A stretch of DNA of 64,000 nucleotides from Nitrospirota bacterium. Its GTDB lineage: Bacteria; JACPQY01. Below the pieces are notes generated by a model. The model searched no databases, was not told where the DNA came from, and was given only the letters and a program-made list of their open reading frames with translations. The stretch is from the NCBI GenBank assembly GCA_016180645.1, contig JACPAV010000017.1:1-64000 (forward strand). The letters are read 5' to 3'. The first letter of the stretch is position 1, and each line of letters starts with the position of its first letter. The translations under genes and the position numbers were made by a program. Shown here piece by piece: positions 389 through 27,323 of the stretch.

Positions 389-2020
389 TCACGGCGTTCG
401 CCCCATGCTTGCGAGGGCTGTTTGTTCCGGCGGTGTTTGGCTTCCCAGAACCTGGCTGAGCGTTTCAGTGAGGTCTATCGGGGAGAACGGTTTGGCAAGA
501 ATCATGTTCGTGAGGCTGGATAGAAATCCCCTCGTTTCATCAGACACAATGTCCCCGGTGGAGAAAATAACGCGATCTCTAAGCTTCGGCCGGTGGGTGG
601 CGATCCACGCGTAGATTTCCACACCCCCGACACTGCCCGGCATGGTTAGGTCCGTAATCACCGCATCGAAATCTTTCGAATCCAGCGCGACCAGAGCGGC
701 TTGGCCATCCGAGGCCGTTACCACTTCGTGCTGGTCCTTCAAAATGCGTTTCGTGATCTGCAGGATCATGGTCTCATTGTCCACAACGAGGATGTGGCCC
801 CGTCGGGTCACCTTGGCCGGCTTGGGCTGCTTGGGCTTGGCCTGCGTCATGGTTATGGATTCCACCGACGGCAGCCAAATGCTGATCCGTGCGCCTCCCT
901 CCGCGCGATTGGCGGCGATCATCGTGCCTTCGTGCTCCTTGATGATTCCGTAGCTGACACTGAGCCCGAGCCCCGTTCCGGAGCCCACGGGCTTGGTTGT
1001 GTAAAAGGGTTCGAAAGCTCTGGACAGATCCTTGAACCCCGGCCCGTCGTCCTCAAAATCGATTCGGATCCTGCCGTCCTCTGCCTTCGTTCGTATCGCT
1101 AGAGTTCCCCCCTTGTTCTTTTCCCGCATCGCGTCGTAGGCATTGCCGATCAGGTTCAGGAAAACCTGAGATATCTGGCAGGGATCTCCCGCCGTGGTGG
1201 GGAGAGAAGCATCGTACTCGGGAAGGAGTTTCACGTCGTGGACCGCAAACTCGTATTGGCGGAGCGTGAGGGTTTGGTCGAGAAGCTGGTTCATGTCGAC
1301 GGGAGTTTTCCTGGGCGGCTCATTGCGCACGAAGCGCAGCAGGTTCTGCACGATCCTCCGACAGCGATGGGCGGCTTGGAGGATGCTGTCCAGCATGTCG
1401 TGTGCATCTTCAATCGAGTCAGTCTTCATGAGCAGTTCCGCATTCCCCAGGATGACGGTGAGCGGATTGTTGAGCTCATGGGCCGTGCCGGACATCAGCT
1501 CTCCCACGGCAGAGAGTTTCTCGGCTTGTCGCAGTTGCTCCTCAACCTCCTTGCGGCGGGTCACGTCGATGACGAGGAGGAGGAGGCGCTCCTCCTCTGC
1601 ACTCGAAACAGCGACCGCACACACTTCCATGGGGTAGCCCCGGTACTTGCACAATTGGTATTTCACGGTCTCCCGAGACCGGGCTGCATCGGTGATGAAA
1701 CCGACGACCGACGCCCCTTCAGCGCCCGGGAACACTTCCCGGATGTTCTTTCCGAAGAGAAAGTCCTTGGCATGCCCGAAGAGTTCACGGAAGGAAGAGC
1801 TTGTGGAAACGACGCGCAAGTCCGCATCGAGTACGACCAGCGCGAAAGGGATGGACGTCATGATGTCGCACGTGAGTTGTTTGGCCCTCAGGATCTCGGC
1901 TTCACGGCTTCGAGTACGGTTGGTCACAGCCGATATTCTCAATGGGTCCATTTGGGAAGTGTCCGTCTCACCTCGGACGCAGCTCAGGGTGAGCCTCCGG
2001 AGGAGGTTGTGTCGGCACAA
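389..2020 (-). CDS. Hybrid sensor histidine kinase (PAS - HisKA - HATPase_c - C-terminal REC receiver)
   Basis: H-box AHELNNPLTVILGNAELL; N/G boxes NLIGNAYDAM, DDGPGF, GSGTGLGLSV; C-terminal receiver ILVVDNE...DAVITDLTMPG...AKPF. True start may be the internal Met near 1951, because the ORF-table start overlaps the gvpJ-like gene. Confidence 0.85.
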   Translation of the reverse strand: MCRHNLLRRLTLSCVRGETDTSQMDPLRISAVTNRTRSREAEILRAKQLTCDIMTSIPFALVVLDADLRVVSTSSSFRELFGHAKDFLFGKNIREVFPGAEGASVVGFITDAARSRETVKYQLCKYRGYPMEVCAVAVSSAEEERLLLLVIDVTRRKEVEEQLRQAEKLSAVGELMSGTAHELNNPLTVILGNAELLMKTDSIEDAHDMLDSILQAAHRCRRIVQNLLRFVRNEPPRKTPVDMNQLLDQTLTLRQYEFAVHDVKLLPEYDASLPTTAGDPCQISQVFLNLIGNAYDAMREKNKGGTLAIRTKAEDGRIRIDFEDDGPGFKDLSRAFEPFYTTKPVGSGTGLGLSVSYGIIKEHEGTMIAANRAEGGARISIWLPSVESITMTQAKPKQPKPAKVTRRGHILVVDNETMILQITKRILKDQHEVVTASDGQAALVALDSKDFDAVITDLTMPGSVGGVEIYAWIATHRPKLRDRVIFSTGDIVSDETRGFLSSLTNMILAKPFSPIDLTETLSQVLGSQTPPEQTALASMGRTP

Positions 2021-2207
2021 TCAGCTCGCGCATCATCCCATACTTTGACATCGTCTCCACGCTCGCGATGGCCGCGCGTAGCGATACGGCAATCAGAGGG
2101 ACACCGGCAAGGGAAACGATTAAATCGGCATTGAGAAGGAGCCCCTTGTCCAGGACCCTGTCCAGAAGGTCTATGAGGGTTGCTTGTTCGGCACGAGTAG
2201 GTTCCAT
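1968..2207 (-). CDS. Gas vesicle protein, GvpA family (GvpJ/GvpS-like)
   Basis: GvpA-family core LIDLLDRVLDKGLLLNADLIVSLAGVPLIAVSLRAAIASVET. The six-frame ORF has a long spurious N-terminal extension; the internal Met at 2207 gives a ~79 aa product. Confidence 0.75.
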   Translation of the reverse strand: MEPTRAEQATLIDLLDRVLDKGLLLNADLIVSLAGVPLIAVSLRAAIASVETMSKYGMMRELIVPTQPPPEAHPELRPR

Positions 2208-3686: not shown

Positions 3687-3914
3687 TCATTTCACCGCTT
3701 CCACGGGGGTCCCCATGCGCATATCCGAAGGGAAGGCGAGCCCCCACTTCGCCGCCGTCTCGAATGAGGCCAGTGCGGCCCGGAGCTTGATGGAGAGGAG
3801 TTCCGTCTTACATAGAGAAATGACGATATCGGCATTGATCACCAGCCCCTTGTCCAGAACCCGCTCGACCACGTCCGCGAGACTCTCGCCGTGCGTTGCA
3901 TGTTGGACCGGCAT
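3687..3914 (-). CDS. Gas vesicle structural protein, GvpA family (second copy, GvpJ/M-like)
   Basis: LADVVERVLDKGLVINADIVISLCKTELLSIKLRAALASFETAAKWG. Canonical GvpA-family hydrophobic core. Confidence 0.8.
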   Translation of the reverse strand: MPVQHATHGESLADVVERVLDKGLVINADIVISLCKTELLSIKLRAALASFETAAKWGLAFPSDMRMGTPVEAVK

Positions 3915-3935: not shown

Positions 3936-4310
3936 CTAGATTTCCTCACGCTCTTCGGTCGCGTAGCTCCGTTCCCTTGAGGCGCTCAGAGCGAAACCCA
4001 CAACCGCAAGCCCTTCATCAAGCTGAATGCTGTAGATATTCCTGTCGAAGATCACGGGGTAGCCCAGTTTCTGCAAGTACTTGTTTTGCTCCGTCACCTC
4101 GACCCTTCCTTCCCAACCCTCCTCCGATCTTGAGAGCTTGATGAGCCGGAATTCCTCCCTTTCTTTTCCAAGCTCCGTGACAAGGAATTCCACCACTTTT
4201 TCCTGGACCTCATGTATCCCCGGCATGTCAATCACCTTCTTCCCGTTTCTGTATCTCGGCCAGCCGCTCCAGGAGCTCCTTCTCCCTCGCGTTGTATTCC
4301 TCCTCTCCAA
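3936..4310 (-). CDS. GvpO-like gas vesicle protein
   Basis: SRSEEGWEGRVEVTE ... YSIQLDEGLAVVGFA resembles GvpO (PF05800). The real start may be the internal Met (MPGIHEV) because the ORF overlaps gvpG. Confidence 0.5.
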   Translation of the reverse strand: MERRNTTRGRRSSWSGWPRYRNGKKVIDMPGIHEVQEKVVEFLVTELGKEREEFRLIKLSRSEEGWEGRVEVTEQNKYLQKLGYPVIFDRNIYSIQLDEGLAVVGFALSASRERSYATEEREEI

Positions 4311-4470
4311 TTTCCTCCATGTCGAGCTTTGCTTGGAGCGTCACGAGCTCTTCCTGGATCCTGTCCGGATCGTAAAGCTCCTTGTCGGCGAGATCTCGGA
4401 GCTTTTCGCCGACCCACGTGATCCCTTTGATGGGGGCGAGGAGGAGATCATCCAGGAGAAACATGTGCAA
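4228..4470 (-). CDS. gvpG: Gas vesicle protein GvpG
   Basis: N-terminus MFLLDDLLLAPIKG is the GvpG signature, followed by an acidic coiled coil. Confidence 0.7.
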   Translation of the reverse strand: MHMFLLDDLLLAPIKGITWVGEKLRDLADKELYDPDRIQEELVTLQAKLDMEEIGEEEYNAREKELLERLAEIQKREEGD

Positions 4471-5254
4471 CGTCCTCCAGGGCTTGTCCAGGATCCCTCT
4501 GCCATCGGATGGCGATTTCTACGAAATTGAACGGTGGAATAGGACCGAGGTACTTGAAATGCAGCGCGTCTCCATACTTCATCTCCAGTACCTCAACCTT
4601 TCCATCAAAAGCCTCCCGTTTTTCTTTTTCCACGAGAAACGCGGCGTTCAGGATCATCGCATCCCCGAGGGTCTTGTTTTGTTTCCTCTCCGCGGCGAGG
4701 GGCGAGAGCGCATCCATCAGCGCCCGGCCGACCGCCTCGTTTTTTGCCCGAGCCGCTTCCTGCACCAAGTGGCCGATGTCGATCAGGGCCATCCTCCTCG
4801 CTTCCTCGGGCAGGGAAGAAATCCACTCCTTCTTGTGTCGGATCTTCTCATCGTTCGCGCCGATCTCTCGATAAACCCCGTCCAGATCCTTCCACCGTAC
4901 TCGAAGCCCAACCTCCTCCTTGCCGGCTATCCGGGTGAAGCCTTCTTCAAATTCCCCCACCTTGGCGCGCAGAACCTCTTCGATGATCCTGTCTTGATCC
5001 TCCGCAAGGGTGGCGAACTTGACCGGCAGGAGCCGGTGAGTCTGCATCACCCTTTCATTCACGAGCTGATGGGCCATAAGAAAATCACGGACGAGGCGGT
5101 ACTTTCTCATCGGTTCCTCGGAGACGACGGCGGCAAAATCGCCGTCAGCCACCACAAAGACGGGCCTCGTCCCCTGAATCCCGAGGCAATCCCACTTCAT
5201 TTCCCCCCTGTTCTCAATGATACAATACATCCACAGGCCCATCCGTTCCGTCAT
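4448..5254 (-). CDS. Gas vesicle protein GvpF/GvpL family (paralog 3)
   Basis: MYCIIE start motif and C-terminal KYLGPIPPFNFVEI. The start codon overlaps the stop of the upstream paralog (ATGA). The ORF-table N-terminal 171 aa are rejected as an extension. Confidence 0.75.
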   Translation of the reverse strand: MTERMGLWMYCIIENRGEMKWDCLGIQGTRPVFVVADGDFAAVVSEEPMRKYRLVRDFLMAHQLVNERVMQTHRLLPVKFATLAEDQDRIIEEVLRAKVGEFEEGFTRIAGKEEVGLRVRWKDLDGVYREIGANDEKIRHKKEWISSLPEEARRMALIDIGHLVQEAARAKNEAVGRALMDALSPLAAERKQNKTLGDAMILNAAFLVEKEKREAFDGKVEVLEMKYGDALHFKYLGPIPPFNFVEIAIRWQRDPGQALEDVAHVSPG

Positions 5255-6006
5255 CGTCTTCCCCCATTCCAGTGCATTTGCACATTTACAAAACTGAACG
5301 GAGGCATGGGTCCTACGTATTTCACCGCCAACCTCCCGCCATGTTCCTCGCTGATCCGTTCTATCCGGGCATCGAACTCCTGAACCCAGTCCCGGTCCAG
5401 CAGGAACACAGCGTTCACGACCATGTTGTCCGTCCTCGATTCGTCTTCTTTGCATTCGACCGAGACCTTTTTGAGGGGCCGCAGGTACTCCCCTCCCTCC
5501 ACTGCCTTCTTTTCCTCCAAGGCCATCTCCACTAATTGACCCGCATGGGTCAGCGCCTGCTTGCTCCCGCCGGCCGCTCTTGCCTTGAGTTCCCGGATCT
5601 TCCGGTTTTCCCCGACAATCTCCTCGTATATCCCTTTCATGCCCTTCCAGAGGATCCGGATGCCGACTTCCACCTTTCCATCCATGTCTCTGAGGAGGTT
5701 TCTCAGCTCTCTGTTTCGATCTTCGAGAAGGGCCAGGATCTCGTCGGTGGATTTCGCAACCGTGCAAAACCGCATCGGAAGGATCGTGAATCGCTTCGCC
5801 ACGGTCTCGATGACCCGGACATGGTTGCTCACATTTTCCCTCGAAATCGCGGGACGATCGGATGATACATTGCTGAGGACCGCGGCAAGCCCACCGGCGC
5901 CGACGGTAACCACCTCATCCTGCGTCCCGCCGATTCCGATGGGCCCGAAGTTCATCGCCTCTTCTGTGGCGATGATCCCATAGATGTACTTTCCCTCGTT
6001 GTTCAC
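5251..6006 (-). CDS. Gas vesicle protein GvpF/GvpL family (paralog 2)
   Basis: KYIYGII start motif and C-terminal KYVGPMPPFSFVNV. A likely GTG start at 6006 overlaps the upstream stop (GTGA). Confidence 0.75.
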   Translation of the reverse strand: MNNEGKYIYGIIATEEAMNFGPIGIGGTQDEVVTVGAGGLAAVLSNVSSDRPAISRENVSNHVRVIETVAKRFTILPMRFCTVAKSTDEILALLEDRNRELRNLLRDMDGKVEVGIRILWKGMKGIYEEIVGENRKIRELKARAAGGSKQALTHAGQLVEMALEEKKAVEGGEYLRPLKKVSVECKEDESRTDNMVVNAVFLLDRDWVQEFDARIERISEEHGGRLAVKYVGPMPPFSFVNVQMHWNGGRR

Positions 6007-7028
6007 GGGGCCACGCCCCCCCTTTGGGCGTCCAACACTTGGAGGCGAACATGGTGTTCCACGGCTTCTTTTTCCAGGGACCGCGGCCCGTCCTTGCAGT
6101 AATCGCCGACGGACTGATAGGCCCTGTTCAGACGTTCGAAAAACACGGGTGAAAGATCGGGATGGGTGTCCGGGTGACACTGTCTGGAAAGCTCCTTGTA
6201 CGTCCTCTTGACTCCGCTCAGTTCAGCCGTCCCATTCAGATGGAGGATTCCCGCGGCCTCCTGAATCTTTGCGGGATCGAACCTCTTGATCGTCACGGTC
6301 CCGAAGCTATATGGCGGGAGGGGACCGATGCACTTGAAGTGGAGTCTACGGAAGATCGCGTCCATCCCTCCCAAGGCCCGGTCGAAGTCCTCCATCCGGT
6401 TTCGTCGAACAAGAAAAGAGGCGTTGAAAACCATTGCGTCGTCCAGCACGTCGTGTTCTACGATACCCTCCGCGATGGTCCCCAGCGCCGACGTAAGTTG
6501 CCCGCGCCACACCTTCGCTCGCCTTCTCAGGGCTTGCTGAAGGAGCATGCCGATTGCAGCCCGGTCGACGAACTCCCCTCGGGCCATTTTCCCCTTATAG
6601 GTGACGATCTGAGGGTCTTCATCCGAAATCTCGCGAAGGATCTCGGGAACCACCCACGTGGCGACGAGGTTGATTTCCGAACAGCCCTCCAGACGGTTGA
6701 TGAGGTCGCGCAGAAAGGGTCCGCCGTCGGAGAAGATCCGTTCAAGTTCGGAATCGTCCTTCAGCACCGTTCCGAACTTGAACGGAAGGATGAAGAATCT
6801 TTTCATCACCTCCTCGATCGTCGCCTGATGGGCGAGAAGAAAACGCACCAGCGCTTCCTTCGGTACTTGGGAGAATTCACGGAGAGGGGCCGGCCCGACC
6901 ACCGCGGCAAGCTCCCCATGAGGGATGGTCTTGACGCGTCCTCTTTCTCCCCCGATCGCTTCAAACCCGATCGGCCCAAAGTCCATCGCCTCCCGGTGAG
7001 GAATGACTCCGTATAGATAAAGACTCAT
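6003..7028 (-). CDS. GvpF/GvpL-family protein fused to a C-terminal DnaJ J-domain (paralog 1)
   Basis: MSLYLYGVIP start and KCIGPLPPYSFGTV GvpF/L end, then ILHLNGTAELSGVKRTYKELSRQCHPDTHPDLSPVFFERLNRAYQSVGDY. The HPD tripeptide and flanking helices fit the J-domain (PF00226). The start ATG overlaps the CDC48-like stop (ATGA). Confidence 0.7.
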   Translation of the reverse strand: MSLYLYGVIPHREAMDFGPIGFEAIGGERGRVKTIPHGELAAVVGPAPLREFSQVPKEALVRFLLAHQATIEEVMKRFFILPFKFGTVLKDDSELERIFSDGGPFLRDLINRLEGCSEINLVATWVVPEILREISDEDPQIVTYKGKMARGEFVDRAAIGMLLQQALRRRAKVWRGQLTSALGTIAEGIVEHDVLDDAMVFNASFLVRRNRMEDFDRALGGMDAIFRRLHFKCIGPLPPYSFGTVTIKRFDPAKIQEAAGILHLNGTAELSGVKRTYKELSRQCHPDTHPDLSPVFFERLNRAYQSVGDYCKDGPRSLEKEAVEHHVRLQVLDAQRGGVAP

Positions 7029-9223
7029 GCGGCGGCCTCCTTCTTCTGCATGTGGAGCGATTCCGTCATGACCCGTTCGATGGTTTCCTTCCGCAGGACG
7101 CACCTGTCCGCCATCTCGTTGGCTTTCTCTCCGTAACGTTCGATGAACTCCCGAACCGCCAGAGTCAGGGCCTGCCGGCAGATCGATTCGATGTCCGCCC
7201 CGCTTCGGCCTTCGCAGGCTCTCGCCAGTTCCTTCGGGGCGACCGCCTTTTCCACCGGGCGTCCGCGCAAGTGGATTCGGAAGATTTCCTCCCGTGTTGT
7301 CACGTCCGGAAGATCCACCTCGATCACGTGATCGAAGCGCCCCGGTCTGATCAGCGCAGGGTCGATCAGATCGCGCCGATTGGTTGCTCCGAGAACCACG
7401 ACCCCGCGGAGTTTTTCAAGACCGTCGATCTCGGTCAGGAACTGGCTGATGGTCCTGGCCATGACCCCGGAGTCTCCCTCACCCGCGTCCCTCCTCGGGG
7501 TCATCGAATCGATCTCGTCAAAGAAAAGGATACAGGGTGCGGCCGCCTTCGCCTTTTTGAAAACTTCCCGAACCCCTTTCTCGGTCTCCCCAACCCACTT
7601 CGAAACAAGCTCCGGACCCTTGATGGAAATGAAATTCACCTCTGACTCCGTCGCGACGGCCCTCGCGATGAGAGTCTTCCCCGTGCCCGGGGGGCCCGCG
7701 AGAAGAATCCCCTGGGTGGGTTTCAGACCGACTGTTTCAAGAAGCCTGCCATATCGGAGAGGCCATTCCACCGTTTCCCTCAGAATCTTCTTGGTGTCCT
7801 CCAGCCCTCCCACCTCCGACCAACGGACGTTCGGAGACTCGATCGACACCTCGCGGATCGCCGACGGCTCCACCTCGTTCATCGCCTGCATGAAGTGGCC
7901 CTGGGTCACCTCCAGCGTCTCGATGGCTTCATGGGGAACCTCGTCCAACGTAACCTCACCCCGCTCCATCGACTCGCGAAGACAAGTCATCGCCGCCTCT
8001 CGGGCGAGCGCCTCAAGGTCGGCGCCGACGTAGCCGTGCGTAATGCCGGCCAACTTCTCCAAACTCACGTCCTTCGCCAGGGGCATGCCCCGTGTGTGGA
8101 TCTCCAGGATCTTGAGCCGCCCGTTTCGCTCGGGGATTCCGATCGGGATCTCCCGGTCGAAACGGCCCGGACGTCTCAAAGCCGGGTCCAGAAGCTCCGG
8201 CATGTTCGTGGCGCCGATGACGATCAACTGACCGCGGTCTTTCAACCCATCCATGAGGGAAAGAAGCGTGGCCACGATTCTCTTCTCGACCTCCCCTTGA
8301 ACATTCGCTCTCTTGGGCGCAACGGAATCAATCTCATCGATGAAGATAATGGAGGGGGACTGCCTCGATGCCTCGTCAAAGATCCTGCGGAGGTGGGCTT
8401 CGCTCTCGCCGTAGAATTTGTGGACGATCTCGGGTCCGTTGACCGCAAAGAAGTTCGCCTCCGCTTCATGAGCCACCGCGCGGGCAATCAGCGTTTTTCC
8501 CGTTCCCGGCGGACCGTAGAGAAGAACCCCCTTGGGCGGATTGATTCCGAGACGGTCAAAGATCTCCGGGAACTTCAGCGGGAGTTCGATCATCTCCCGG
8601 ACGCGCTGGATCTCCCGGTTCAACCCGCCGATGTCCTCGTACGAGACGAATGGGCTTTTCGCCTCGCCCTTCTCCTGCGACTCCTCGATCCGGATCGTCG
8701 TCTGAGGCGTGATCAACACCAACCCCGTCGGCGAGGTCTGGACCACCGCATAGTCCCGGGTCCGGGTGCCGAACAACGTGACCCGCACCTTGTCCCCGGC
8801 CATTACGGGAAGACCCTCCACCGTCCGCCCGAGGGACCGTGTCTCGCCGGACCTGTTGACGGGACTGGCCGGCATGGCCCCGCCGGAAATGATCTTGAGA
8901 TCGATCAACCTGGCGGGACAGGAGACGGCCGGCGTGAGCTTGACCTTCTCGTCGATGCCGACCTTCGCGTTTTCTCGTATGATCCCGTCAATCTGGACCA
9001 AGCCCTTCCCCCGGTGTTCGGCAAATGTGGGCATGACTTTTGCCCCGGTCGCTCTTTTCCCCTCAACAAGGAGGATGTCGCCGATCTTGACTCCCAGTTT
9101 CTCCATCTCCTCCGGGTCCATCCGGGCAATGCCTCTGCCAACGTCCTTCGGATGGGCCTCGGAAGCCCGCTGGAAGACCGACGGCACGGTCGAACCGGCT
9201 GTTTCCTTCCTGGCCGGCATCAT
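7025..9223 (-). CDS. CDC48/VCP/p97-like two-ring AAA+ ATPase (N-domain + D1 + D2)
   Basis: CDC48 N-domain-like VKIGDILLVEGKRATGAKV. Two complete AAA modules: GPPGTGKTLIARAVA with IIFIDEIDS, and again AGPPGTGKTLIARAVA with ILFFDEIDS. The ORF-table N-terminal 86 aa extension is rejected. Confidence 0.85.
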   Translation of the reverse strand: MMPARKETAGSTVPSVFQRASEAHPKDVGRGIARMDPEEMEKLGVKIGDILLVEGKRATGAKVMPTFAEHRGKGLVQIDGIIRENAKVGIDEKVKLTPAVSCPARLIDLKIISGGAMPASPVNRSGETRSLGRTVEGLPVMAGDKVRVTLFGTRTRDYAVVQTSPTGLVLITPQTTIRIEESQEKGEAKSPFVSYEDIGGLNREIQRVREMIELPLKFPEIFDRLGINPPKGVLLYGPPGTGKTLIARAVAHEAEANFFAVNGPEIVHKFYGESEAHLRRIFDEASRQSPSIIFIDEIDSVAPKRANVQGEVEKRIVATLLSLMDGLKDRGQLIVIGATNMPELLDPALRRPGRFDREIPIGIPERNGRLKILEIHTRGMPLAKDVSLEKLAGITHGYVGADLEALAREAAMTCLRESMERGEVTLDEVPHEAIETLEVTQGHFMQAMNEVEPSAIREVSIESPNVRWSEVGGLEDTKKILRETVEWPLRYGRLLETVGLKPTQGILLAGPPGTGKTLIARAVATESEVNFISIKGPELVSKWVGETEKGVREVFKKAKAAAPCILFFDEIDSMTPRRDAGEGDSGVMARTISQFLTEIDGLEKLRGVVVLGATNRRDLIDPALIRPGRFDHVIEVDLPDVTTREEIFRIHLRGRPVEKAVAPKELARACEGRSGADIESICRQALTLAVREFIERYGEKANEMADRCVLRKETIERVMTESLHMQKKEAAA

Positions 9224-9224
9224 C

Positions 9225-9812
9225 TCATTTTGCTTTCTTGAGCTTGACCTCAAGAACGCCGTTCGTGTAGCTCCGCTCGATGCTCTTGGGGTCAACCTTG
9301 GCCGGGAGGAGGACCTCTTTGGAGTACGTCCGCTTCCCGGAGGTCGTGATCTGGATGACATCGTCACCCTGGACCTCGACGGACACATCCGCGTCGCCCA
9401 CGCCGGGAAGCTCGGCCACAAGTCGGATAAATCCTTCCTCATCGAAGAGATCGATGAGCGGCTCTCTTGCCTCTTCGACAACCGGCCCCTTCGATCGAGC
9501 CCGCGCCTTCACTTTGCCGATGTCCCCAAAGGGTTGAACGACAGGCCGCGAACCTCCCCCGGGTCCCGCCATGGTCCGGATGGAAAAGCCATAGACCCCG
9601 GTGACGTCCTTGTTTCCCTTGACGGAAAACTCGCCCGTCCTCTTGATTTCCCCCCCCTCCCGGGTCACCTTGTCTGCAAGATCAACCAGGGTGGAAAGCC
9701 CCTTGAAGAATCCTCCCAGGAGTCCTCTGCCGCCGATCTCGACGTCCACCTCCGGTTTCCTTCCGGCCTCCTTCTTTTCCTTCCCAGGATTAGGCACGGG
9801 GCTGTTCCTCAA
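9225..9812 (-). CDS. Hsp20/alpha-crystallin family small heat-shock protein (GvpH-like position)
   Basis: C-terminal alpha-crystallin domain FIRLVAELPGVGDADVSVEVQGDDVIQITT ... YTNGVLEVKLKK. Lies between gvpN and the CDC48-like gene. The start overlaps the upstream stop. Confidence 0.7.
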   Translation of the reverse strand: MRNSPVPNPGKEKKEAGRKPEVDVEIGGRGLLGGFFKGLSTLVDLADKVTREGGEIKRTGEFSVKGNKDVTGVYGFSIRTMAGPGGGSRPVVQPFGDIGKVKARARSKGPVVEEAREPLIDLFDEEGFIRLVAELPGVGDADVSVEVQGDDVIQITTSGKRTYSKEVLLPAKVDPKSIERSYTNGVLEVKLKKAK

Positions 9813-10141
9813 AACTTGAGGGAAACCGTGTTGACACGGCGGCCGTTGTCGTGACTCCGTTTGGACACCCTCCCCATTCTCCGGGCGCGGGGTCCTACGA
9901 GACCGGAGTACTTCCTCTCCGTATCTCCGATATCCCTCTCGATCCCCTGGAGTTGATCCTTGATCTGCGCAAGTTGAGCCTCGAGGGAACGCATCTTCTT
10001 GATCATGCTCTCGCGCCTCACGGTCAATATGTAGAGGCGGTTTGCCTGTTGGGCAACACCTCCCCCGATCGCAAAATGGGCGATGGCTGAAACCCCACGG
10101 GTTGCGGTGGACCCTCTCGGGGGTCCTGCGGGTATGGACAT
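9809..10141 (-). CDS. Hypothetical coiled-coil protein (~110 aa) in the gvp operon
   Basis: Heptad-like KKMRSLEAQLAQIKDQLQGIERDIGD. Starts 2 nt after the gvpN stop. No family recognised. Confidence 0.4.
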   Translation of the reverse strand: MSIPAGPPRGSTATRGVSAIAHFAIGGGVAQQANRLYILTVRRESMIKKMRSLEAQLAQIKDQLQGIERDIGDTERKYSGLVGPRARRMGRVSKRSHDNGRRVNTVSLKF

Positions 10142-10142
10142 C

Positions 10143-11096
10143 TTATCCCTCCTCCGACGGCCCGGCTCCATTGCCGGCGTATTTCTTGATCGCTTTTTTC
10201 ACCACTTCCGCCACCTTCGCGGAGGTGGCCAAGCTCCCTATCCGCGACGTCTCCGATGTCAGAACGTCCAGACAAATCCTGGAAAAAAGCGGGTCCGCGG
10301 ACTTGACGCGGGCCCCACTCCCATACTCGCGCACCGTCCTGGCAATCATGATGCAGGCGCGAATCGTGGGCGTGAATTCGTACTGCCCGTGTTCCCTCAG
10401 GTAACGCACGATTCTCACCACCTTTGTGGCTTCACCCACAGGTAGACCCGACTTCCTGGCGGTGATGAACCGCTCCGTCTCCTCGTCCAGCGACTGCAAG
10501 TCGAGGGTCACCATCCGGTCCCGCAGGGCGTCCTGGGAGCGGTGAACACCGGCATACTCCTCGGGATTCGATGTGAAGATCGCGCGGAAATCCGGATGGA
10601 CCTTGAGGTAGCCGGTCCGTTCTCCCTCGCGGTTCAAAGGGAGATCGAGGATCCCCTCTTGAAGGACGGAAAGGAGGACGTTGTTCGCCTCCGGCCGGGA
10701 GCGGGTGAATTCGTCATAGATCAGGCTGTAGCCGTTCTCGACGGCGACCGTCAGCCGGTTGTCAACCCACCGCTTCGAGCTCTCCTCTTCGATCTTCAGG
10801 ACGGAGGAAATGAAATTGTCCCGGACCTTTTTCATATGATAGCCGGTTTCTGCACCGACCAAGTCCGAGGTCGTGAACTCCTCGTCCCCATGGATCATGA
10901 GGACGGGCCGGCCTATCAGTTCAGCCAATCGGAGGGCGAGAGTCGTCTTTCCCGTCCCCGAGGCCCCCCGAAAATGGACCGGGAAACCGGCCTTCATGTA
11001 GTGCAACGCCCTTGCAACCGTTTCCTTTACAAAGGGGGTCTCCACAAACTCTTTGCCCGCCTGCGGTTGTATCACGGTTGCCTCATGTGCCTGCAT
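10143..11096 (-). CDS. gvpN: Gas vesicle protein GvpN (MoxR-like AAA+ ATPase)
   Basis: Walker A FRGASGTGKTTLALRLA and Walker B SLIYDEF. The single-AAA MoxR architecture is typical of GvpN. RBS GGAGGAG upstream of the ATG at 11096. Confidence 0.8.
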   Translation of the reverse strand: MQAHEATVIQPQAGKEFVETPFVKETVARALHYMKAGFPVHFRGASGTGKTTLALRLAELIGRPVLMIHGDEEFTTSDLVGAETGYHMKKVRDNFISSVLKIEEESSKRWVDNRLTVAVENGYSLIYDEFTRSRPEANNVLLSVLQEGILDLPLNREGERTGYLKVHPDFRAIFTSNPEEYAGVHRSQDALRDRMVTLDLQSLDEETERFITARKSGLPVGEATKVVRIVRYLREHGQYEFTPTIRACIMIARTVREYGSGARVKSADPLFSRICLDVLTSETSRIGSLATSAKVAEVVKKAIKKYAGNGAGPSEEG

Positions 11097-11158: not shown

Positions 11159-11518
11159 CTAGTGCGCGCGAGCCGCTTTCTGCTTGGCTGCCGCGAAGGG
11201 TCCCTTGAAGTTCTGGCGCTTCGAGGCCATCGTCTTGGCCATTCTCTGCCACGCGAGGTGGGCCTCCTTGCGGTCCCTCTGGTTCTTCCGCCGCAGGCTG
11301 CCGACCGTTTCCCTCAGATCGTCGACAAAGGCGCCCAAGTCCACTTCGAGTTTCCTGGCCCGTGCCCTGCCCTGCTTGTGAAATCCCGCGAGCAACCTGT
11401 GCGTATCGACGATATGGTTCCGAGTATCGACACGATTCTTCCCAAGGAAGTTCACCCGCGCGTCGAAAGACGCGAGGAAATCATCCCCGAGATTTGTGAA
11501 CTGTTCTGCCAGTCCCAT
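11159..11518 (-). CDS. Hypothetical protein between gvpA and gvpN (candidate gas-vesicle accessory/scaffold protein)
   Basis: 119 aa, basic C-terminus, no TM. Positional analogue of gvpC/gvpV-type genes. No confident family. Confidence 0.4.
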   Translation of the reverse strand: MGLAEQFTNLGDDFLASFDARVNFLGKNRVDTRNHIVDTHRLLAGFHKQGRARARKLEVDLGAFVDDLRETVGSLRRKNQRDRKEAHLAWQRMAKTMASKRQNFKGPFAAAKQKAARAH

Positions 11519-11552: not shown

Positions 11553-12131
11553 CTAGCCAACAGCCGACCTCTGAAGGTCGATGGCTGATGGCTCACTTAT
11601 TTGCAGTTGTGTTTCGAGATCCTGGATGACCCTTTTGAATTCCCGGACCGAGAGGGTTTCCTTCTTGGCCTCGAGACTCGCAAACGTCTCCCGGATCAGG
11701 TCCTGCTCATTCTGAAAAGAAACAATCTCGGCCTTCGCCGTCTCGATCGTCTTCTGAAGCTCTCGTGTGATCCGCTCCACCTCCTGAAGGATGCCGGCGT
11801 GGAGCGAGCGCCTCAGCCTTGCGGCGAGATCCCCTTGACGCGCCAGAAAGCCCTTGATGAACATCTTGATCTGACTTTCCCGCCGGCACTGAAAGTCAAG
11901 GACCCGTTCGGTGAAACCGTCGAAGTCCCTTCGCCGCAGGGAAGTCACGGATGCGAGCGACTCCCGGAGGCTCTCGCGGACCGCTTCATCCACTCTGCCA
12001 TGGCCGGCGAGGATGTCGATCCCCTTCTCAATCAAGCCGCCGACTTCCCCGATCCCCGCCCCGAACGAGGCAACAACGTCGCCTGTCAAATTTCTGATTT
12101 CACTGGATACGGACATTGTTTCTCCTTTCAA
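11553..12131 (-). CDS. Hypothetical coiled-coil protein downstream of gvpA (candidate GvpC-like outer scaffold)
   Basis: 192 aa, long predicted helices (LQKTIETAKAEIVSFQNEQDLIRETFASLEAKKETLS). Occupies the position that gvpC holds in many clusters. Confidence 0.4.
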   Translation of the reverse strand: MKGETMSVSSEIRNLTGDVVASFGAGIGEVGGLIEKGIDILAGHGRVDEAVRESLRESLASVTSLRRRDFDGFTERVLDFQCRRESQIKMFIKGFLARQGDLAARLRRSLHAGILQEVERITRELQKTIETAKAEIVSFQNEQDLIRETFASLEAKKETLSVREFKRVIQDLETQLQISEPSAIDLQRSAVG

Positions 12132-12203: not shown

Positions 12204-12422
12204 TTAGGAAGCCGGCTGAGCGGCTGATGTCGTGAGACCGATCGCTTCGGCGTATTTGAGATAGGTCTCAACGCCGGCGACCACGGCTCGCGCCTCCAAG
12301 GACAGGAATTCGATTCCGACGAGCGACACGCGCGCCCAGGCATCGATGACGATCCCCTTGTCGAGGATCCGGTCGATAACCTCAGCCAGCGATGAACTCG
12401 CCATGGATTTTTGAACGGCCAT
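12204..12422 (-). CDS. gvpA: Gas vesicle structural protein GvpA
   Basis: [63 protein letters not shown] is near-canonical GvpA. RBS GGAGGTG 6 nt upstream of the ATG at 12422. Confidence 0.92.
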
Positions 12423-12491: not shown

Positions 12492-12506
12492 GCAGGAAGC
12501 ATGCCA
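12492..12506 (-). promoter_or_regulatory. Sigma-54 (-24/-12) promoter candidate for gvpA
   Basis: The minus strand reads TGGCAT-GCTTC-CTGC, matching TGGCAY-N5-YTGC with correct GG/GC spacing. It lies ~70-85 nt upstream of the gvpA ATG and downstream of an NtrC-family EBP gene. Confidence 0.6.
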
Positions 12507-12811: not shown

Positions 12812-14212
12812 TCAGGCCCCGGAGAACCCCGATCGAATTCCAAGCTCCTTTATTTTATTGTAGAGAGTCCTACGGGTGATCCCCAAGAGATCGGCCGCCT
12901 TGCCTTGATGCCCCTTCGTCTTTTGAAGGGCTTCCAGGATCAACTGCCTCTCAACCTGTTCGCTCGCCTTGCGGGCGACTTCCGTGAAGGGAAGGTCATG
13001 GGAGATGGGAAGACGGATCTCCGGCGCTAAATCCGATTTCCCGGGATTCCGGACTTCCGGCGGCAGATCCACGAGCTCGACGCAGCCTTCAGCCATCACC
13101 ATGGCCCTTTTCATGATGTTCCGCAGTTCCCGCACGTTTCCCGGGAAGGAATAGCGATGGAGCCTTTCGAGGGCCTCGGGGGCTATTTTCGAAACTTCCT
13201 TCCCCATCTCCGGTCCCATTTGGAGCAAGAACCTGTGGCAGAGGAACGGAATATCATCCCTTCTCTCTCGAAGCGGCGGGAGATGGATCATAAACTCATT
13301 CAGGCGATAGAAGAGATCCAGGCGGAAAAGATTCTCCCGCGAAGCTCGGGCCAGATCCGCGTTCGTCGCGGCGATCACGCGAACGGAGGTCCGGATTGTT
13401 CTCCTGCCGCCCACCCGCTCGATCTCGTGACTCTCCAGGAACCGAAGAAGCTTGGACTGCACCGGGCCCGGGATGTTCCCGATCTCATCCAGGAAGAGCG
13501 TGCCCCCGTCGGCCAGCTCACACTTTCCCTTCACGGTTGAGGTGGCGCCGGTAAAAGCGCCCTTTTCGTAGCCGAACAACTCGCTCTCGATCAGCGTCTC
13601 CGGGATTGCCGCACAATCGACCGGAATGAACGAACCTTCGTGCCCATTGGACAAGCGGTGGATGGCTCTCGCAACAAGCTCCTTCCCCGTTCCCGATTCA
13701 CCCAGGATGAGGACATTCACTTTCGTCGCGGCGACCGAGCGCGCGAGTCGAATCACCTGCTGTGTCTTTTCAGAAGCCCCCATCGACGCCTCAAGATCCC
13801 CCACCTCTCCCAAACGCGCCTGCAACCCTTCGATCTGCCGATGGAGACGCCGTTGCTCAATCGCCATTGCGATCAGGACGGTCATTTCCTCCCTGTTGAA
13901 CGGCTTGGTTGCATAGTGGAAAGCCCCCTTTTTCATGGCCTGCACGGCGGTTTCAACCGTCGGATACCCGGTGAGCATGATCACCGGCAGTCTACTGTCC
14001 CATTCCCTGATCTGGCTCAAGACGGTCATGCCGTCGGAATCACCCAGATGGCGATCAAGGAGGACACAAGACGGAGATTCCCGCTGAATAAGCGGAAGCG
14101 CCGAATCGGCTGCGGTTGTCCAAGCCGCTCGATATCCCTCTTGCGTGAGGAATTTCCCCAACATGCGGCAGACGTCCTCTTCGTCGTCAATGATGAATAT
14201 GGTTTCCATCAA
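12812..14212 (-). CDS. Sigma-54-dependent Fis-family response regulator (REC + AAA sigma-54 activator + HTH), GvrA-like
   Basis: Receiver DDEEDV...LLDRHLGDSDG...KPF. GESGTGKELVARAIH Walker A, GAFTGA motif, C-terminal Fis-type HTH. Confidence 0.9.
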   Translation of the reverse strand: MMETIFIIDDEEDVCRMLGKFLTQEGYRAAWTTAADSALPLIQRESPSCVLLDRHLGDSDGMTVLSQIREWDSRLPVIMLTGYPTVETAVQAMKKGAFHYATKPFNREEMTVLIAMAIEQRRLHRQIEGLQARLGEVGDLEASMGASEKTQQVIRLARSVAATKVNVLILGESGTGKELVARAIHRLSNGHEGSFIPVDCAAIPETLIESELFGYEKGAFTGATSTVKGKCELADGGTLFLDEIGNIPGPVQSKLLRFLESHEIERVGGRRTIRTSVRVIAATNADLARASRENLFRLDLFYRLNEFMIHLPPLRERRDDIPFLCHRFLLQMGPEMGKEVSKIAPEALERLHRYSFPGNVRELRNIMKRAMVMAEGCVELVDLPPEVRNPGKSDLAPEIRLPISHDLPFTEVARKASEQVERQLILEALQKTKGHQGKAADLLGITRRTLYNKIKELGIRSGFSGA

Positions 14213-14844
14213 GCCACTCGTTTCATTTCGTAGCTGCCGCGGAGTGGGAGGCGATGGATCAAATAACTGATTTCGACGTCCAAGGGTATGAGTTCATCCA
14301 CCTTGTGAAGGAGGCCTATGAAAAGGATGCCGATCTCTCCAGGTTGGAGCGTTGCAAGAATTCGGTCCCGGATGACCCGATCTCTTCCCTTCAAGAGTTC
14401 ACCCGCCTCCTTCTCAAATGCACGAATGAGCGTTTCCTTCTCTTGGTGAGTCCTCGCCTCCGCGATGTTCCTGAGATGGCCATATTCGCGCCTGAGTAGC
14501 CCGGGGTCTTCCGTCCCGACAAGGGTCGCCCCCTGACAGAGCAACCATTGAACCAGAACGTGGTTGAGACTTCCCCTCTTCGCGAGCTCATCGATGATCT
14601 CTTTTTCTTTCCCGCAAATGGGGAGGCCGTCTTGGTAAACCTTCACCTTCTTGAAGGGAAGATGGATGGCCTGGATTCGTTTCTTGATTCCTTCCCACAT
14701 CTCCTCGACCGCTTCAGCCCGCTGCCTCCATTTCTCCTCTCCCAATTTCTCTACATACGCCTTCCGCATCGATCCCGCCAAAGTTCCCATATCATTCTCC
14801 GTGTGCAGGACGGGAACATAGATCAGTTTTCTCCTATCTTGCAC
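14209..14844 (-). CDS. Hypothetical protein co-transcribed between the receiver and the NtrC-like regulator
   Basis: 211 aa, soluble, no recognisable domain. Overlaps both neighbours (4 nt and 11 nt), which implies one operon. Confidence 0.45.
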   Translation of the reverse strand: MQDRRKLIYVPVLHTENDMGTLAGSMRKAYVEKLGEEKWRQRAEAVEEMWEGIKKRIQAIHLPFKKVKVYQDGLPICGKEKEIIDELAKRGSLNHVLVQWLLCQGATLVGTEDPGLLRREYGHLRNIAEARTHQEKETLIRAFEKEAGELLKGRDRVIRDRILATLQPGEIGILFIGLLHKVDELIPLDVEISYLIHRLPLRGSYEMKRVA

Positions 14845-15211
14845 GCAGAGCTTCCTTTACCACCGCGTTGACGAGGTTGAGGTCGAACGGTTTTGCGAGG
14901 TAATCGACGGCCCCCAGCCGTATCGCCTCGCGGGCGGATGAGGGGCTGCCATGGCCGGTCATAATCACGACAGCCGGAAAGGGTCCCTTCTTTATCGCGC
15001 GGATTTTCTCAAGAACCTCAATCCCTCCCATATCGGGCATCTTGAGGTCGAGGAGGAGGAGCTGAACATCCCGTCTTTTGAGGATTGAAACGACTCTCCG
15101 GCCGCTCGTAGCAGTGGAAACCTTGTATCCCTCTCTGGTTAAGGCTTTCTTGAGGAGGTTGCAAATCCCGGGCTCATCATCCGCGACAAGGATTGAAGGA
15201 GCCTTCATCAT
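14834..15211 (-). CDS. Single-domain response regulator (CheY-like receiver)
   Basis: ILVADDEPGI ... LLLLDLKMPDMGG ... AKPF. Receiver domain only. Confidence 0.85.
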   Translation of the reverse strand: MMKAPSILVADDEPGICNLLKKALTREGYKVSTATSGRRVVSILKRRDVQLLLLDLKMPDMGGIEVLEKIRAIKKGPFPAVVIMTGHGSPSSAREAIRLGAVDYLAKPFDLNLVNAVVKEALRAR

Positions 15212-24698: not shown

Positions 24699-27323
24699 AT
24701 GCGTTTTGAGAAACTGACGCTCAAGTCGCAGGAGGCCTTGGCTTCGGCGCGCGAGGTTGCCGAGAGGCACGACCACCAGGAGATCGACGTCGAGCACCTC
24801 CTCGACGCGCTCATCGCTCAGAAGGAAGGACTCGTTCTCCCCGTCCTCCGCCAACTCGAAATCGATCCCGACGCCATCCTGGGCGACCTCGAGGGGCATC
24901 TCCGAGGGCGGCCGAAAGTGAAAGGCGCCGGCGCGGAGACCTTCATTTCCCAGCGGATGGGGCAGGTTCTCAACGGCGCTCAGCGCGAGGCGGAAAGACT
25001 GAAAGATGAGTTCGTCTCCACCGAGCACCTCCTCATCGCCATCGCGGAGGATGCGGGATTCGCGGGCGACCTGCTGCGCCGCCGCCGGGCGAACAAGGAA
25101 GTCATCTACCAGGCCCTCACGAAGCTTCGGGGCTCCCAGCGAGTGACGGATGCGAGTCCCGAGGAGAAATATGCGCCTTTGGAGCGCTACGCGCGGGACC
25201 TGACCATGGCGGCGGGTCGTGGCAAACTCGATCCCGTCATCGGCCGGGACGAGGAAATTCGCCGGGTCATTCAGGTCTTGTCGCGGCGGACGAAGAACAA
25301 TCCCGTGCTGATCGGGGAGCCGGGGGTCGGCAAGACCGCCATCGTGGAGGGACTGGCGCAGCGGATCGTGTCAGGCGACGTACCTGAGAGTCTTCGCGAC
25401 AAGCGCATCCTCGCCCTTGACCTCGGGGCGTTGGTGGCCGGCGCGAAATACAGAGGCGAATTCGAGGATCGTCTGAAGGCGTTGCTGAAAGCGATCGAGG
25501 AGGCCTCGGGGAAGATCGTTCTCTTCATCGACGAGCTGCACACGCTGGTCGGCGCAGGGGCGGCCGAAGGGGCGATCGACGCTTCCAACATGCTGAAGCC
25601 CATGCTGGCCCGCGGGGAATTGCACTGCATCGGTGCCACGACACTCGATGAATATCGAAAGCATGTCGAGAAGGATGCGGCGCTTGAGCGACGGTTTCAG
25701 CCGGTTCACGTGGGCGAGCCGGGCGTGGACGATACGATAGGCATCCTTCGGGGGCTGAAGGAAAAGTATGAAATCCACCACGGCGTCAAGATCACGGACG
25801 CGGCGTTGGTGGCTGCGGCCCAACTCTCCCATCGATACATCGCCGACCGTTTTCTCCCCGACAAGGCGATCGACTTGATCGATGAAGCGGCCAGCCGACT
25901 CAAGATGGAAATCGACAGCATGCCCACGGAGATCGACGAACTTCAACGGAAGATCAATCAGTGGGAGGTCGAACGCCAGGCCCTCAAGAGGGACAAGGAT
26001 GCGGATGCGAAAGGGAAGCTCTCCCGGATCGAGAAGGAACTCCAAAAGGCTCAGAAGGAGGTGGGCCGTCTCAAGAAGCACTGGGAGGAGGAAAAAAGGT
26101 TCATCTCGGAGATCCGCGGGGCGAAGGAGAAGATGGAGTCCCTCAAAACCGATGCGCAGAAAGCGGAACGGGAAGGGGATTGGAATAAAGCCGCTGAAAT
26201 CCGGTACGGCCGGCTCACCGAACTTGCCAAGCAACTTGAAACCTCAACGCAGAAACTCACCGAGCTCCAAAAGAGCGGCCGCATGCTGAAGGAGGAGGTG
26301 GACCCGGAGGACGTTTCACAGGTTATTGCCAAATGGACGGGGATACCGGTGACCCGGCTGATGGAGACTGAGAAAGAGAAGTTGCTCCGCATGGAGGATC
26401 GACTCCGGGAGAGGGTGGTGGGGCAGGATGAGGCACTGGGTGCGGTGGCGGCCTCGATCCGGCGGGCGCGCGCCGGTTTGAAGGACCCGAATCGTCCCAT
26501 CGGTTCGTTCCTGTTTCTAGGACCGACGGGCGTGGGGAAAACAGAGACCGCCCGCGCACTGGCCGAATTCCTGTTCGACTCCGAGCAGGCCATGGTGCGG
26601 CTGGACATGTCCGAGTACATGGAGAAACACACCGTGGCAAGACTCATCGGCGCTCCGCCCGGCTACGTGGGCTACGAGGAGGGAGGCCAACTCACCGAGG
26701 CCGTTCGCCGCCGGCCCTACTCCGTGATCCTTCTGGATGAGATTGAGAAGGCGCATGCGGACGTGTTCAATGTCCTTCTTCAAGTGCTGGACGACGGGAG
26801 GTTGACCGACGGCCAGGGCCGCACGGTCGATTTCCGGAACGCCGTCGTCATCATGACCTCCAATATCGCCAGCCAGGAGATCGCTGATCTTCACGGTCGG
26901 GATCAGGAGTTGCGGAATGCCGTGCAGGTTGCCTTGAAAAACCATTTCCGTCCGGAGTTCCTCAACAGGGTGGATGACGTCGTCACCTATCACGGTCTTG
27001 AGCGAAAGGACCTTGAGCGGATCGTCGACATCCAGTTGAGGTCGTTGGGACGGGTGCTCCGACCGAAGGCGATAACAATTGAGTTGACACCCAGTGGGCG
27101 CGAACTTATCATGGCCCGAGGCTATGAACCCGCCTACGGAGCACGTCCTTTGAAGCGGGCCATTCAGAAGTGGCTCATGGATCCTTTGGCCGCCGGGCTC
27201 ATCTCCGGCGAAATCGAGGAGGGATCGGTGGTTCAGGTGGATGCCGATTCCCGACGGGAACGGCTTGTCTTCTCTGCGAAGAAGAAAGGTCGCGGGGGAT
27301 CTAAACCGGGGGTCGAGGAGTAA
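24699..27323 (+). CDS. clpB: Chaperone ClpB (Hsp100)
   Basis: Two NBDs ([15 protein letters not shown]; [15 protein letters not shown]) and a middle coiled-coil domain. 874 aa. Confidence 0.95.

Follow-up and report, generated by a model that had tools for sequence, protein, structure and literature searches.

We have studied a gas vesicle protein (gvp) cluster in a stretch of 64,000 nt from a Nitrospirota bacterium (positions 1 to 64,000 of contig JACPAV010000017.1, assembly GCA_016180645.1), which we will call the window. Inside this cluster there are three consecutive genes which code for a small heat-shock protein (sHsp), a predicted two-ring ATPase of the CDC48 type and a GvpL/GvpF protein which ends in a J-domain. 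From the comparison of related sequences this trio is a conserved, widespread and specifically gvp-linked part of gvp clusters. What is new is a type of gvp cluster which has a network of chaperones built into it; it is not unique to the window and it is not categorically new. The three genes are the following:

9225-9812 (-): GvpH-like small heat-shock protein, PF00011 30.9 bits
7025-9223 (-): CDC48/VAT-type two-ring AAA+ ATPase, 732 amino acids (aa), TIGR01243 878 bits
6003-7028 (-): GvpL/GvpF-J-domain fusion, 341 aa, PF06386 176.6 bits, PF00226 26.5 bits

Since gvp genes flank the trio on both sides, the original prediction, made from the letters of the window, was correct in describing it as embedded in a gvp operon. 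It also knew of no description of a fusion of a J-domain with a Gvp protein or of a CDC48 in a gvp operon, and this agrees with our search: in the full-text literature covered, with subscription-only papers outside, there is no description of either one, nor of any J-domain in a gvp cluster. The literature searched has no description of DnaK-type genes in or beside gvp clusters either. The public entries for the proteins themselves have generic titles ('GvpL/GvpF family', 'CDC48 family AAA ATPase'), and NCBIfam has no gvp-specific name for any of the three. That gvp clusters can include Hsp20 or GvpH was known before (PMC2963123, PMC7325909, PMC6107691), and ArsA/Get3-like ATPases together with Hsp20 were noted in them by Castillo and Saier 2010 (PMC2963123). 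The extra gvp ATPases discussed so far are GvpN and the ArsA-like proteins. In the main text of the Candidatus Hakubella paper only hsp20 is mentioned for the gvp cluster.

The GvpL/F-J fusion protein

The sequence of the fusion protein is already deposited, with 100% identity, as 'MAG: GvpL/GvpF family gas vesicle protein [Nitrospirae bacterium]'. Its identity as a GvpF/L paralogue is well founded: the profile PF06386 (GvpL_GvpF) gives 176.6 bits over positions 2-243 of 245, and the AlphaFold2 model matches GvpF crystal structures in Foldseek. The model has a predicted local distance difference test score (pLDDT) of 93.1 and a predicted TM-score (pTM) of 0.83. It presents a GvpF fold, followed by helix I, by a hairpin of helix II, HPD and helix III, and by a confidently modelled tail; in residues 252-310 the pLDDT is ~93-97. 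The parts of the protein are:

6303-7022 (-): residues 3-242, GvpF/L fold; Foldseek matches to GvpF structures 6L5D and 4QSG, E = 1e-15, target-normalised TM-score 0.75-0.82
6099-6275 (-): residues 252-310, J-domain; helix I 252-261, helix II 270-284, HPD 285-287, helix III 294-310
6024-6098 (-): residues 311-335, conserved C-terminal tail; predicted short helix, strand 327-331, high model confidence

The peptide YKELSRQCHPDTHPD was confirmed in the fusion, with the HPD codons at positions 6168-6176. Taken alone, the window protein scores 26.5-26.7 bits with PF00226 (DnaJ, E = 6e-6), which misses the gathering threshold of 27.8 by 1.1-1.3 bits. The family as a whole gives a stronger signal. 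PF00226 is matched by all 34 aligned homologues (best E = 1.2e-14), and H285-P286-D287 is invariant in all of them, with identities to the window protein down to 27%. The basic residues of helix II (K271, R272, K275 and R279) are also conserved among the homologues, as are the F and AY of helix III. A search of the PDB with a profile of the J-region found 77 sequences: all 60 listed are J-domain proteins, headed by E. coli DnaJ (1BQZ) with E = 4.7e-15.

The structural comparison goes in the same direction. Foldseek finds a local match between the fusion model and the J-domain of DnaJA1 (2M6Y) with probability 0.99. With the whole model the search is dominated by the GvpF part, which pushes the J-domains down the ranking (E = 0.22). 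Neither the model nor the alignment of the fusion shows the canonical helix IV of J-domains; a family-specific tail is found in its place, which probably packs on the rest of the protein, to judge from its high pLDDT and the pTM. On the family-level profile, the invariance of HPD and the AlphaFold2 model we accept that the J-domain is real. These family-level tests are needed for the assignment, since the window sequence by itself falls below the Pfam threshold. The original prediction spoke of a clear J-domain: the domain stands, but it is not clear from the window protein on its own.

The CDC48-type ATPase

The product of 7025-9223 gives 878.1 bits with TIGR01243 ('CDC48 family AAA ATPase'), above the cut-off of 802.65. 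All the Pfam domains of CDC48 have been detected: CDC48_N, CDC48_2, two AAA modules (PF00004) and two lids (PF17862). The presence of an N-domain, two AAA modules and two lids, together with the TIGR01243 score, makes it by its sequence a two-ring enzyme and not a member of a single-ring family, in agreement with the full CDC48/VCP-type ATPase with an N-domain which had been proposed. The start of the gene was set by alignment to VAT, which extends from residue 7 on, and by the Hsp20 stop. The domains are organized as follows (the coordinates of the N-domain were converted from the numbering of an 818-aa open reading frame, ORF):

8669-9166 (-): residues ~20-185, N-domain with double-psi barrel and beta-clam; PF02359 82.8 bits and PF02933 39.3 bits, both above threshold
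7946-8527 (-): residues ~233-426, D1 AAA and lid; Walker A GPPGTGKT 237, pore loop KFYGESE 269, Walker B IIFIDE 292
7124-7708 (-): residues ~506-700 (approximate), D2 AAA and lid; Walker A GPPGTGKT 510, pore loop KWVGETE 542, Walker B ILFFDE 565

Both rings have intact Walker A and B motifs, and each has an aromatic pore loop, a feature conserved across the clade. From these loops the predicted enzyme may be expected to act as a hexameric threading unfoldase. The nearest solved structure is that of Thermoplasma VAT (5G4F, 714 bits). No HbYX proteasome-docking motif was found at the C-terminus (...HMQKKEAAA), and the tails of the homologues are short, basic and variable; this motif is a feature of archaeal proteasome-linked members and not of the whole CDC48 family. 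A link to the proteasome through an HbYX tail was rejected, as the motif is lacking. Pfam and NCBIfam profiles detect no ClpB-type M-domain in the gene product; CDC48_N and CDC48_2 are present instead. A close homologue of this ATPase (P0160, 1215 aa) contains the intein-type Pfam domains PF14890 and PF14528, so its gene is probably interrupted by an intein.

The small heat-shock protein

PF00011 (HSP20) gives 30.9 bits with the product of 9225-9812, in residues 129-194, well above the gathering threshold of 20.8, and the Hsp20 gene of the original prediction is confirmed in this way. The NCBIfam profile for archaeal Hsp20 (NF041800) gives 120.8 bits, under its cut-off of 140. The protein has 195 aa if it starts at the TTG in 9812, or 190 aa from the GTG in 9797, which has a better Shine-Dalgarno sequence. 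Its alpha-crystallin domain is C-terminal, and gvp-linked sHsps have a long Gly-rich N-terminal region. They end about 5 residues past the last alpha-crystallin strand (48 of 49 relatives). The best annotated relatives are the Hsp20 of the gvp plasmid of Octadecabacter arcticus (35.7% identity) and the RefSeq 'gvpH' of the plasmid gvp cluster in Methylosinus sp. C49 (30.5% identity, E = 3e-8).

Gene junctions

The junctions of the three genes are very tight:

9223-9227 (-): Hsp20 stop TGA (9225-9227), one base, CDC48 ATG (9223); adjacent, no overlap
7025-7028 (-): ATGA overlap of the CDC48 stop and the fusion start
6003-6006 (-): GTGA overlap of the fusion stop with the start codon of the GvpF/L gene which follows

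The same kind of packing continues on either side: the TTG start of the Hsp20 gene (9812) overlaps the stop of the upstream ORF as TTGA, and the start of the GvpF/L gene at 4448-5254 forms an ATGA overlap with the preceding stop. Such packing of the three genes and their neighbours, which overlap as ATGA and GTGA or are spaced by a single nucleotide, is consistent with co-translation. The three genes had been described as consecutive and overlapping; all of them are present on the minus strand and CDC48 overlaps the fusion, but Hsp20 and CDC48 are separated by 1 nt. Terminator-like sites show no excess: 14 were observed, while 12.3 are expected from shuffled sequence.

Conservation in related loci

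When one genome per species was scanned, 459 relatives of the GvpL/F protein appeared, and we have analysed the best 80 of these 459 loci. Loci outside the window are called here by their L numbers. As the scan started from one peptide pattern and kept the best 80 matches, the percentages describe J-fusion clusters and not all gvp clusters. The loci were annotated by tblastn and with a hidden Markov model (HMM) built from the alignment, rather than with curated gene calls. Many of them are truncated contigs of metagenome-assembled genomes (MAGs), a few of which are possibly mis-binned.

The J-domain is present in all of the best 80 loci, as found with the alignment HMM; they carry about 20 phylum-level labels and include the cultured Ktedonobacter and Dictyobacter. 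A word-indexed protein search found the architecture PF06386 plus PF00226 in 83 protein clusters at 90% identity. When the last 113 residues of the fusion were compared by phmmer with 1.84 billion representative proteins, 343 matches appeared at E <= 0.001; among the 150 matches listed, most have 330-360 aa and the matched region is C-terminal. We estimate from these sequences that the J-fused GvpL/F family has at least about 300 clusters at 50% identity.

The neighbourhood is also conserved. The order gvpA, two further genes, gvpN, a small ORF, Hsp20 (~190 aa), CDC48, GvpL/F-J, GvpF, GvpF, GvpG recurs in other MAGs, labelled as Deltaproteobacteria, Gammaproteobacteria, Actinomycetes, Chlamydiae and Eisenbacteria. 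Among the 59 species-representative loci with at least 3 kb upstream of the fusion, CDC48 is found directly upstream of it in 35 and elsewhere within 10 kb in another 13. CDC48 is closely preceded by an sHsp gene in 37/53 loci. When at least 8 kb are available on both sides (32 loci), 27 have CDC48 and 28 have an sHsp.

The linkage also holds in the reverse direction. Five homologues of the CDC48 protein (~60-68% identity) were sampled in different lineages: Chlamydiae and Eisenbacteria MAGs, a 907-kb contig, Candidatus Hakubella and Hyalangium gracile, a cultured myxobacterium. Each of the five is inside a gvp cluster, and in four cases the J-fusion follows. The gvp cluster on the RefSeq plasmid of Methylosinus sp. 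C49 ends with 'gvpH' and 'CDC48 family AAA ATPase'. CDC48 is thus placed with gvp genes in other genomes too, and with gene order and reciprocal linkage conserved across many phyla the trio is not an unrelated cassette which landed here by chance. The clusters of the cultured Hyalangium gracile and Methylosinus sp. C49 offer tractable organisms for experiments.

Two loci stand apart. In L080, from a Dehalococcoidia MAG, the J-domain GvpL/F gene (10001-11062) stands alone: in the 10 kb to its left and to its right no other gvp gene and no CDC48, Hsp20 or Hsp70 gene could be recognised. L029 is a 3.6-kb contig binned as Candidatus Methanoperedens, an archaeon, which contains CDC48 and J-GvpL; its assignment could reflect horizontal transfer or mis-binning.

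Hsp70, ClpB and other ATPases

Signature motifs and tblastn show that in 25 of the 80 related loci an Hsp70 of the DnaK type is encoded on the same strand as the fusion and at most 10 kb away from it. In eight loci of the class Anaerolineae (seven of them labelled Anaerolineales) DnaK is directly upstream of the J-fusion, the position which CDC48 has in the window. It comes after the last gvp gene in many loci of Dehalococcoidia, Desulfobacteraceae and Chloroflexia, often with extra sHsp genes. Some clusters, such as L082, encode J-GvpL, DnaK, sHsp and CDC48 together. Examples of these DnaK-type genes are:

L014: 6263-8236
L042, L043 and L076: ~8070-9960
L082: 14373-16217
L046: 17198-19000
L057: 17111-19132

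Four of the DnaK-type proteins were tested and give 758-910 bits with NF001413 (cut-off 648); two of the four are under the stricter cut-off of TIGR02350, as expected for diverged paralogues. DnaK genes beside gvp genes are the strongest evidence available that the J-domain of the fusion acts as J-domains do, and we infer from them that it may stimulate the ATPase of an Hsp70. In L023 (1-3006) a single ORF appeared to join Hsp70 and J-GvpL; it was rejected as an artefact of an N run between two genes.

The window has a canonical ClpB at 24699-27323 (+), with Clp_N, AAA, AAA_2 and ClpB_D2-small, 12 kb from the gvp cluster. Since ClpB is encoded there, the CDC48 of the gvp cluster is an addition to the general disaggregase and not its replacement; the idea that it substitutes for an absent ClpB was discarded.

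ArsA/Get3-like ATPases are found in about half of the complete related loci, and in many of them they occur together with CDC48 and the J-fusion. One example is the two-domain protein of L087 (13109-15067, TIGR00345 499 bits); another is the Candidatus Hakubella gvp cluster, which encodes CDC48, the J-fusion and ArsA. A motif search and tblastn found no ArsA gene in the window. The model clusters of Halobacterium, Anabaena, Bacillus megaterium and Serratia are not known to us to carry CDC48, a J-domain or Hsp70. The statement that GvpN is normally the only AAA+ protein in gvp clusters, from which we started, holds for these model clusters but not for the widespread cluster type with CDC48.

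Proposed function and alternative explanations

How the hydrophobic GvpA stays soluble, is delivered and gets inserted is the central open question of gas vesicle assembly, and the module may explain how cells handle this very sticky shell protein. GvpF is the primary binder of GvpA, transient and chaperone-like, and GvpL is a scaffold which binds GvpJ, GvpK, GvpM and GvpS (PMC7688916, PMC11445434). GvpM is kept soluble by GvpH (PMC6107691), and GvpA aggregates and is proteotoxic when there are not enough assembly factors (PMC12848028). It is on these published data that we base the roles proposed for the three proteins.

The GvpH-like sHsp would be an ATP-independent holdase for the very hydrophobic subunits of the GvpA family (GvpA, GvpJ and GvpS/M). 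The GvpL/F-J protein would bind such subunits, or an early assembly or nucleation complex, through its GvpF/L fold. Its HPD J-domain would switch on the ATPase of DnaK/Hsp70, so that the bound subunits pass to DnaK, here the housekeeping DnaK; the fusion would thus be a client-specific (class C) J-domain protein. The third partner, a VAT-like hexamer of the CDC48 type in which both rings are active and have aromatic pore loops, would thread and unfold its substrates and so return them to the assembly-competent pool. These substrates are probably Gvp subunits which have aggregated or been assembled wrongly, or else accessory proteins to be stripped from the growing shell. The module may well be expressed together with the structural gvp genes, judging from sequence and synteny. 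We are inclined to think, with some reserve, that the trio is a dedicated system of holdase, Hsp70 recruitment and unfoldase for aggregation-prone proteins of the GvpA family. The conserved and reciprocal linkage with gvp genes favours a dedicated protein-handling module of this kind, as had been suggested by the original prediction.

Several observations weigh against this interpretation, besides the J-domain score of the window protein mentioned above. The roles of the sHsp, the fusion and CDC48 are all drawn from comparative genomics. In 11 of the 59 informative loci the J-fusion is found without any CDC48. Conversely, the GvpL/F which adjoins CDC48 has no J-domain in Hyalangium gracile (L085, 8001-10990) and in plasmid pMSC49b of Methylosinus sp. 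C49 (L089, 10550-13838). As each of them occurs without the other, CDC48 and the J-fusion need not act at one step. A motif search and tblastn found no Hsp70 gene in the 64-kb window, therefore the housekeeping DnaK would have to serve. We know of no route by which CDC48 could dock to DnaK: ClpB does it through its M-domain, which is absent here. Finally, the I-x-I/V anchor which canonical, oligomer-forming sHsps have in their C-terminal extension is found neither in the window protein (its end is ...GVLEVKLKKAK) nor in 48 of its 49 gvp-linked relatives.

Different roles for CDC48 have to be considered. It might be a turnover or regulatory machine, which unfolds Gvp proteins or a gvp regulator for a partner protease and in this way sets the amount of vesicles or their removal, with an outcome analogous to the lowering of GvpE levels by haloarchaeal GvpD. 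VAT and other relatives of CDC48, including 5G4F, feed proteasomes; the pore loops of the window protein, aromatic in the two rings alike, speak for processive threading, and the separate occurrence of CDC48 and the J-fusion would also fit. We consider it unlikely, however: in this clade neither HbYX nor any other motif for docking is conserved at the C-terminus, the clusters examined have no protease gene in common, and the CDC48 gene lies between the sHsp and the assembly-factor genes and not beside regulators. CDC48 could also be a second assembly motor which works with GvpN or like it, delivering or inserting GvpA or releasing accessory proteins, with no part in the rescue of aggregates. 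In the cluster type of the window it is always downstream of gvpN, some loci which lack it have a second gvpN copy (L008, L027, L033), and the ArsA/Get3-like extra ATPase of other gvp clusters suggests a general need for extra energy (PMC2963123). Yet insertion into a lattice is known for no CDC48, the established activity of the family being unfolding and extraction, and its partners, an sHsp and a J-protein, point to the handling of non-native proteins; we give this possibility little weight.

The J-domain, for its part, might be a structural remnant or bind something other than Hsp70, the fusion being merely one more GvpL/F paralogue. Such an explanation would account for the sub-threshold PF00226 score and for the family-specific tail instead of helix IV, but it appears very improbable. 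The purifying selection on HPD, which is kept in every homologue aligned, is hard to explain without Hsp70; the basic residues of helix II and the F and AY of helix III are conserved as well, and in several lineages DnaK genes are immediately beside the fusion. It may also be asked whether a general stress cassette of sHsp and AAA+ protein came into the gvp cluster by chance or hitch-hiking. Both kinds of chaperone are common stress genes, and hsp20 beside gvp genes has been proposed to reflect heat-shock control (PMC7325909). The comparative data essentially exclude it: the position within the operon is conserved over many phyla, linkage is reciprocal, junctions overlap, and J-domain and Gvp protein form one polypeptide.

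We return to the dedicated chaperone system. In a bolder and doubtful version it would be the first prokaryotic Hsp70/J-protein/Cdc48 machine dedicated to an organelle. A bacterial Cdc48-type unfoldase would then have the amyloid-like shell proteins of the GvpA family as its client; with DnaK, brought in by the J-domain of an assembly factor, and with a tail-less sHsp it would nucleate the shells, proof-read them or recycle them once they have collapsed.

To our knowledge the physiological roles of bacterial Cdc48-like ATPases are largely unknown, and the module offers a possible physiological client for them. There is a practical side as well. Keeping GvpA soluble, delivering it and inserting it is also the main obstacle when gas vesicles are to be expressed as acoustic reporters in foreign hosts, in which GvpA aggregates and kills the cells (PMC12848028). 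Many natural clusters bring their own chaperones, among them those of the cultured Ktedonobacter, Dictyobacter, Hyalangium and Methylosinus: an sHsp, a J-fused GvpL/F, often CDC48, and in some cases a DnaK of their own besides an ATPase like Get3. The module supplies testable hypotheses and candidate helper genes for heterologous gas vesicle production.

Comparison with known systems

In its type and place the sHsp recalls haloarchaeal GvpH and the Hsp20 proteins of bacterial gvp clusters, which are sHsp-type proteins encoded inside gvp clusters and are thought to keep hydrophobic Gvp proteins soluble. It differs by its pairing with CDC48 and a J-protein, and it has no I-x-I tail like that of canonical sHsps. 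The trio as a whole recalls the system formed by IbpAB, DnaK/DnaJ/GrpE and ClpB: in both there is an sHsp holdase, a J-driven Hsp70 and a two-ring AAA+ threading motor. However, the motor of the module is of the CDC48/VAT type with no M-domain for docking to DnaK, and the module is tied to a single organelle. It may function as the ClpB system does without belonging to the ClpB/Hsp104 disaggregases.

In the fusion the J-domain is carried by a client-specific GvpF/L fold, unlike DnaJ, where it is followed by zinc-finger and C-terminal domains. A parallel is offered by class C J-domain proteins such as HscB or auxilin, which direct Hsp70 to one client: their J-domain is also tethered to a domain which binds one client or lattice. 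Here the targeting domain is different, a GvpF/L fold, and this architecture is undescribed in the literature searched.

The ATPase shares its N-D1-D2 architecture with archaeal VAT/Cdc48 and with actinobacterial Cpa, and like VAT it has an aromatic pore loop in each ring. VAT and CDC48 relatives are known for feeding proteasomes, whereas the protein of the window has no HbYX tail, a gvp rather than a proteasome neighbourhood, and belongs to a bacterial clade spread over many phyla. Like GvpN, which is also present (10143-11096), it is an ATPase encoded in the gvp cluster, but GvpN is a single-module protein of the MoxR/AAA_5 type, while CDC48 is a classical two-ring AAA with an N-domain for binding substrates or adaptors. 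The ArsA/Get3-like ATPases are another case in which an extra ATPase and Hsp20 have been recruited into gvp clusters. Their fold and mechanism are different from those of CDC48, since they are dimeric targeting factors of the Get3 type for hydrophobic segments.

Organization of the cluster

Pfam and NCBIfam profile assignments define a compact gvp cluster of 15 genes on the minus strand, from ~12428 down to ~1968. Besides the trio, it contains the following genes and ORFs:

12204-12422 (-): gvpA, PF00741 58.8 bits; ATG at 12422 preceded by a GGAGG motif
11553-12131 (-): ORF of 192 aa, no Pfam/NCBIfam family; tblastn relatives in 21 related loci
11159-11518 (-): ORF within the gvp cluster, no Pfam/NCBIfam family
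10143-11096 (-): gvpN, TIGR02640 324 bits, cut-off 266.8
9809-10141 (-): small ORF of 110 aa between gvpN and the Hsp20 gene, no Pfam/NCBIfam family
5251-6006 (-): GvpF/L paralogue, PF06386 193 bits
4448-5254 (-): GvpF/L paralogue, PF06386 194.6 bits; start from ORF translation
4228-4470 (-): gvpG, PF05120 80.8 bits
3936-4310 (-): ORF within the gvp cluster, no Pfam/NCBIfam family
3687-3914 (-): GvpA-family protein, GvpJ-like, PF00741 59.4 bits
3095-3421 (-): gvpK, PF05121 67.3 bits
2215-3132 (-): fourth GvpF/L paralogue, PF06386 185 bits; ORF limits, true start probably further downstream
1968-2207 (-): GvpA-family protein, GvpS/M-like, PF00741 53.6 bits; final gene of the cluster

The 110-aa ORF has counterparts of 84-121 aa in the equivalent position of L001-L003, L084, L086 and L088, with little conservation of sequence. 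Regulatory genes flank the cluster:

12812-14212 (-): sigma-54 activator
14834-15211 (-): response regulator
389-2020 (-): hybrid PAS histidine kinase

This arrangement suggests that the whole gvp operon is under two-component, sigma-54 control. Similar regulators also flank gvpA in L001 and L086. A search for sigma-54 promoters which allowed at most one mismatch found no site near gvpA. Reading by eye, we have noticed a promoter-like sequence of this type, TGGCAT-N5-CTGC, at 12492-12506 (-), ~70 nt upstream of the gvpA ATG, with two mismatches to the consensus.

Directly upstream of gvpA, two MAGs which are unrelated have a gene of the AbiEii family and a small ORF: L001 (2724-4144, Deltaproteobacteria label) and L084 (2445-3627, Chlamydiae label). 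Far from the gvp cluster, the window also codes for a protein of 1734 aa (52930-58134, +) with many RCC1 repeats and a bacterial Ig-like domain.

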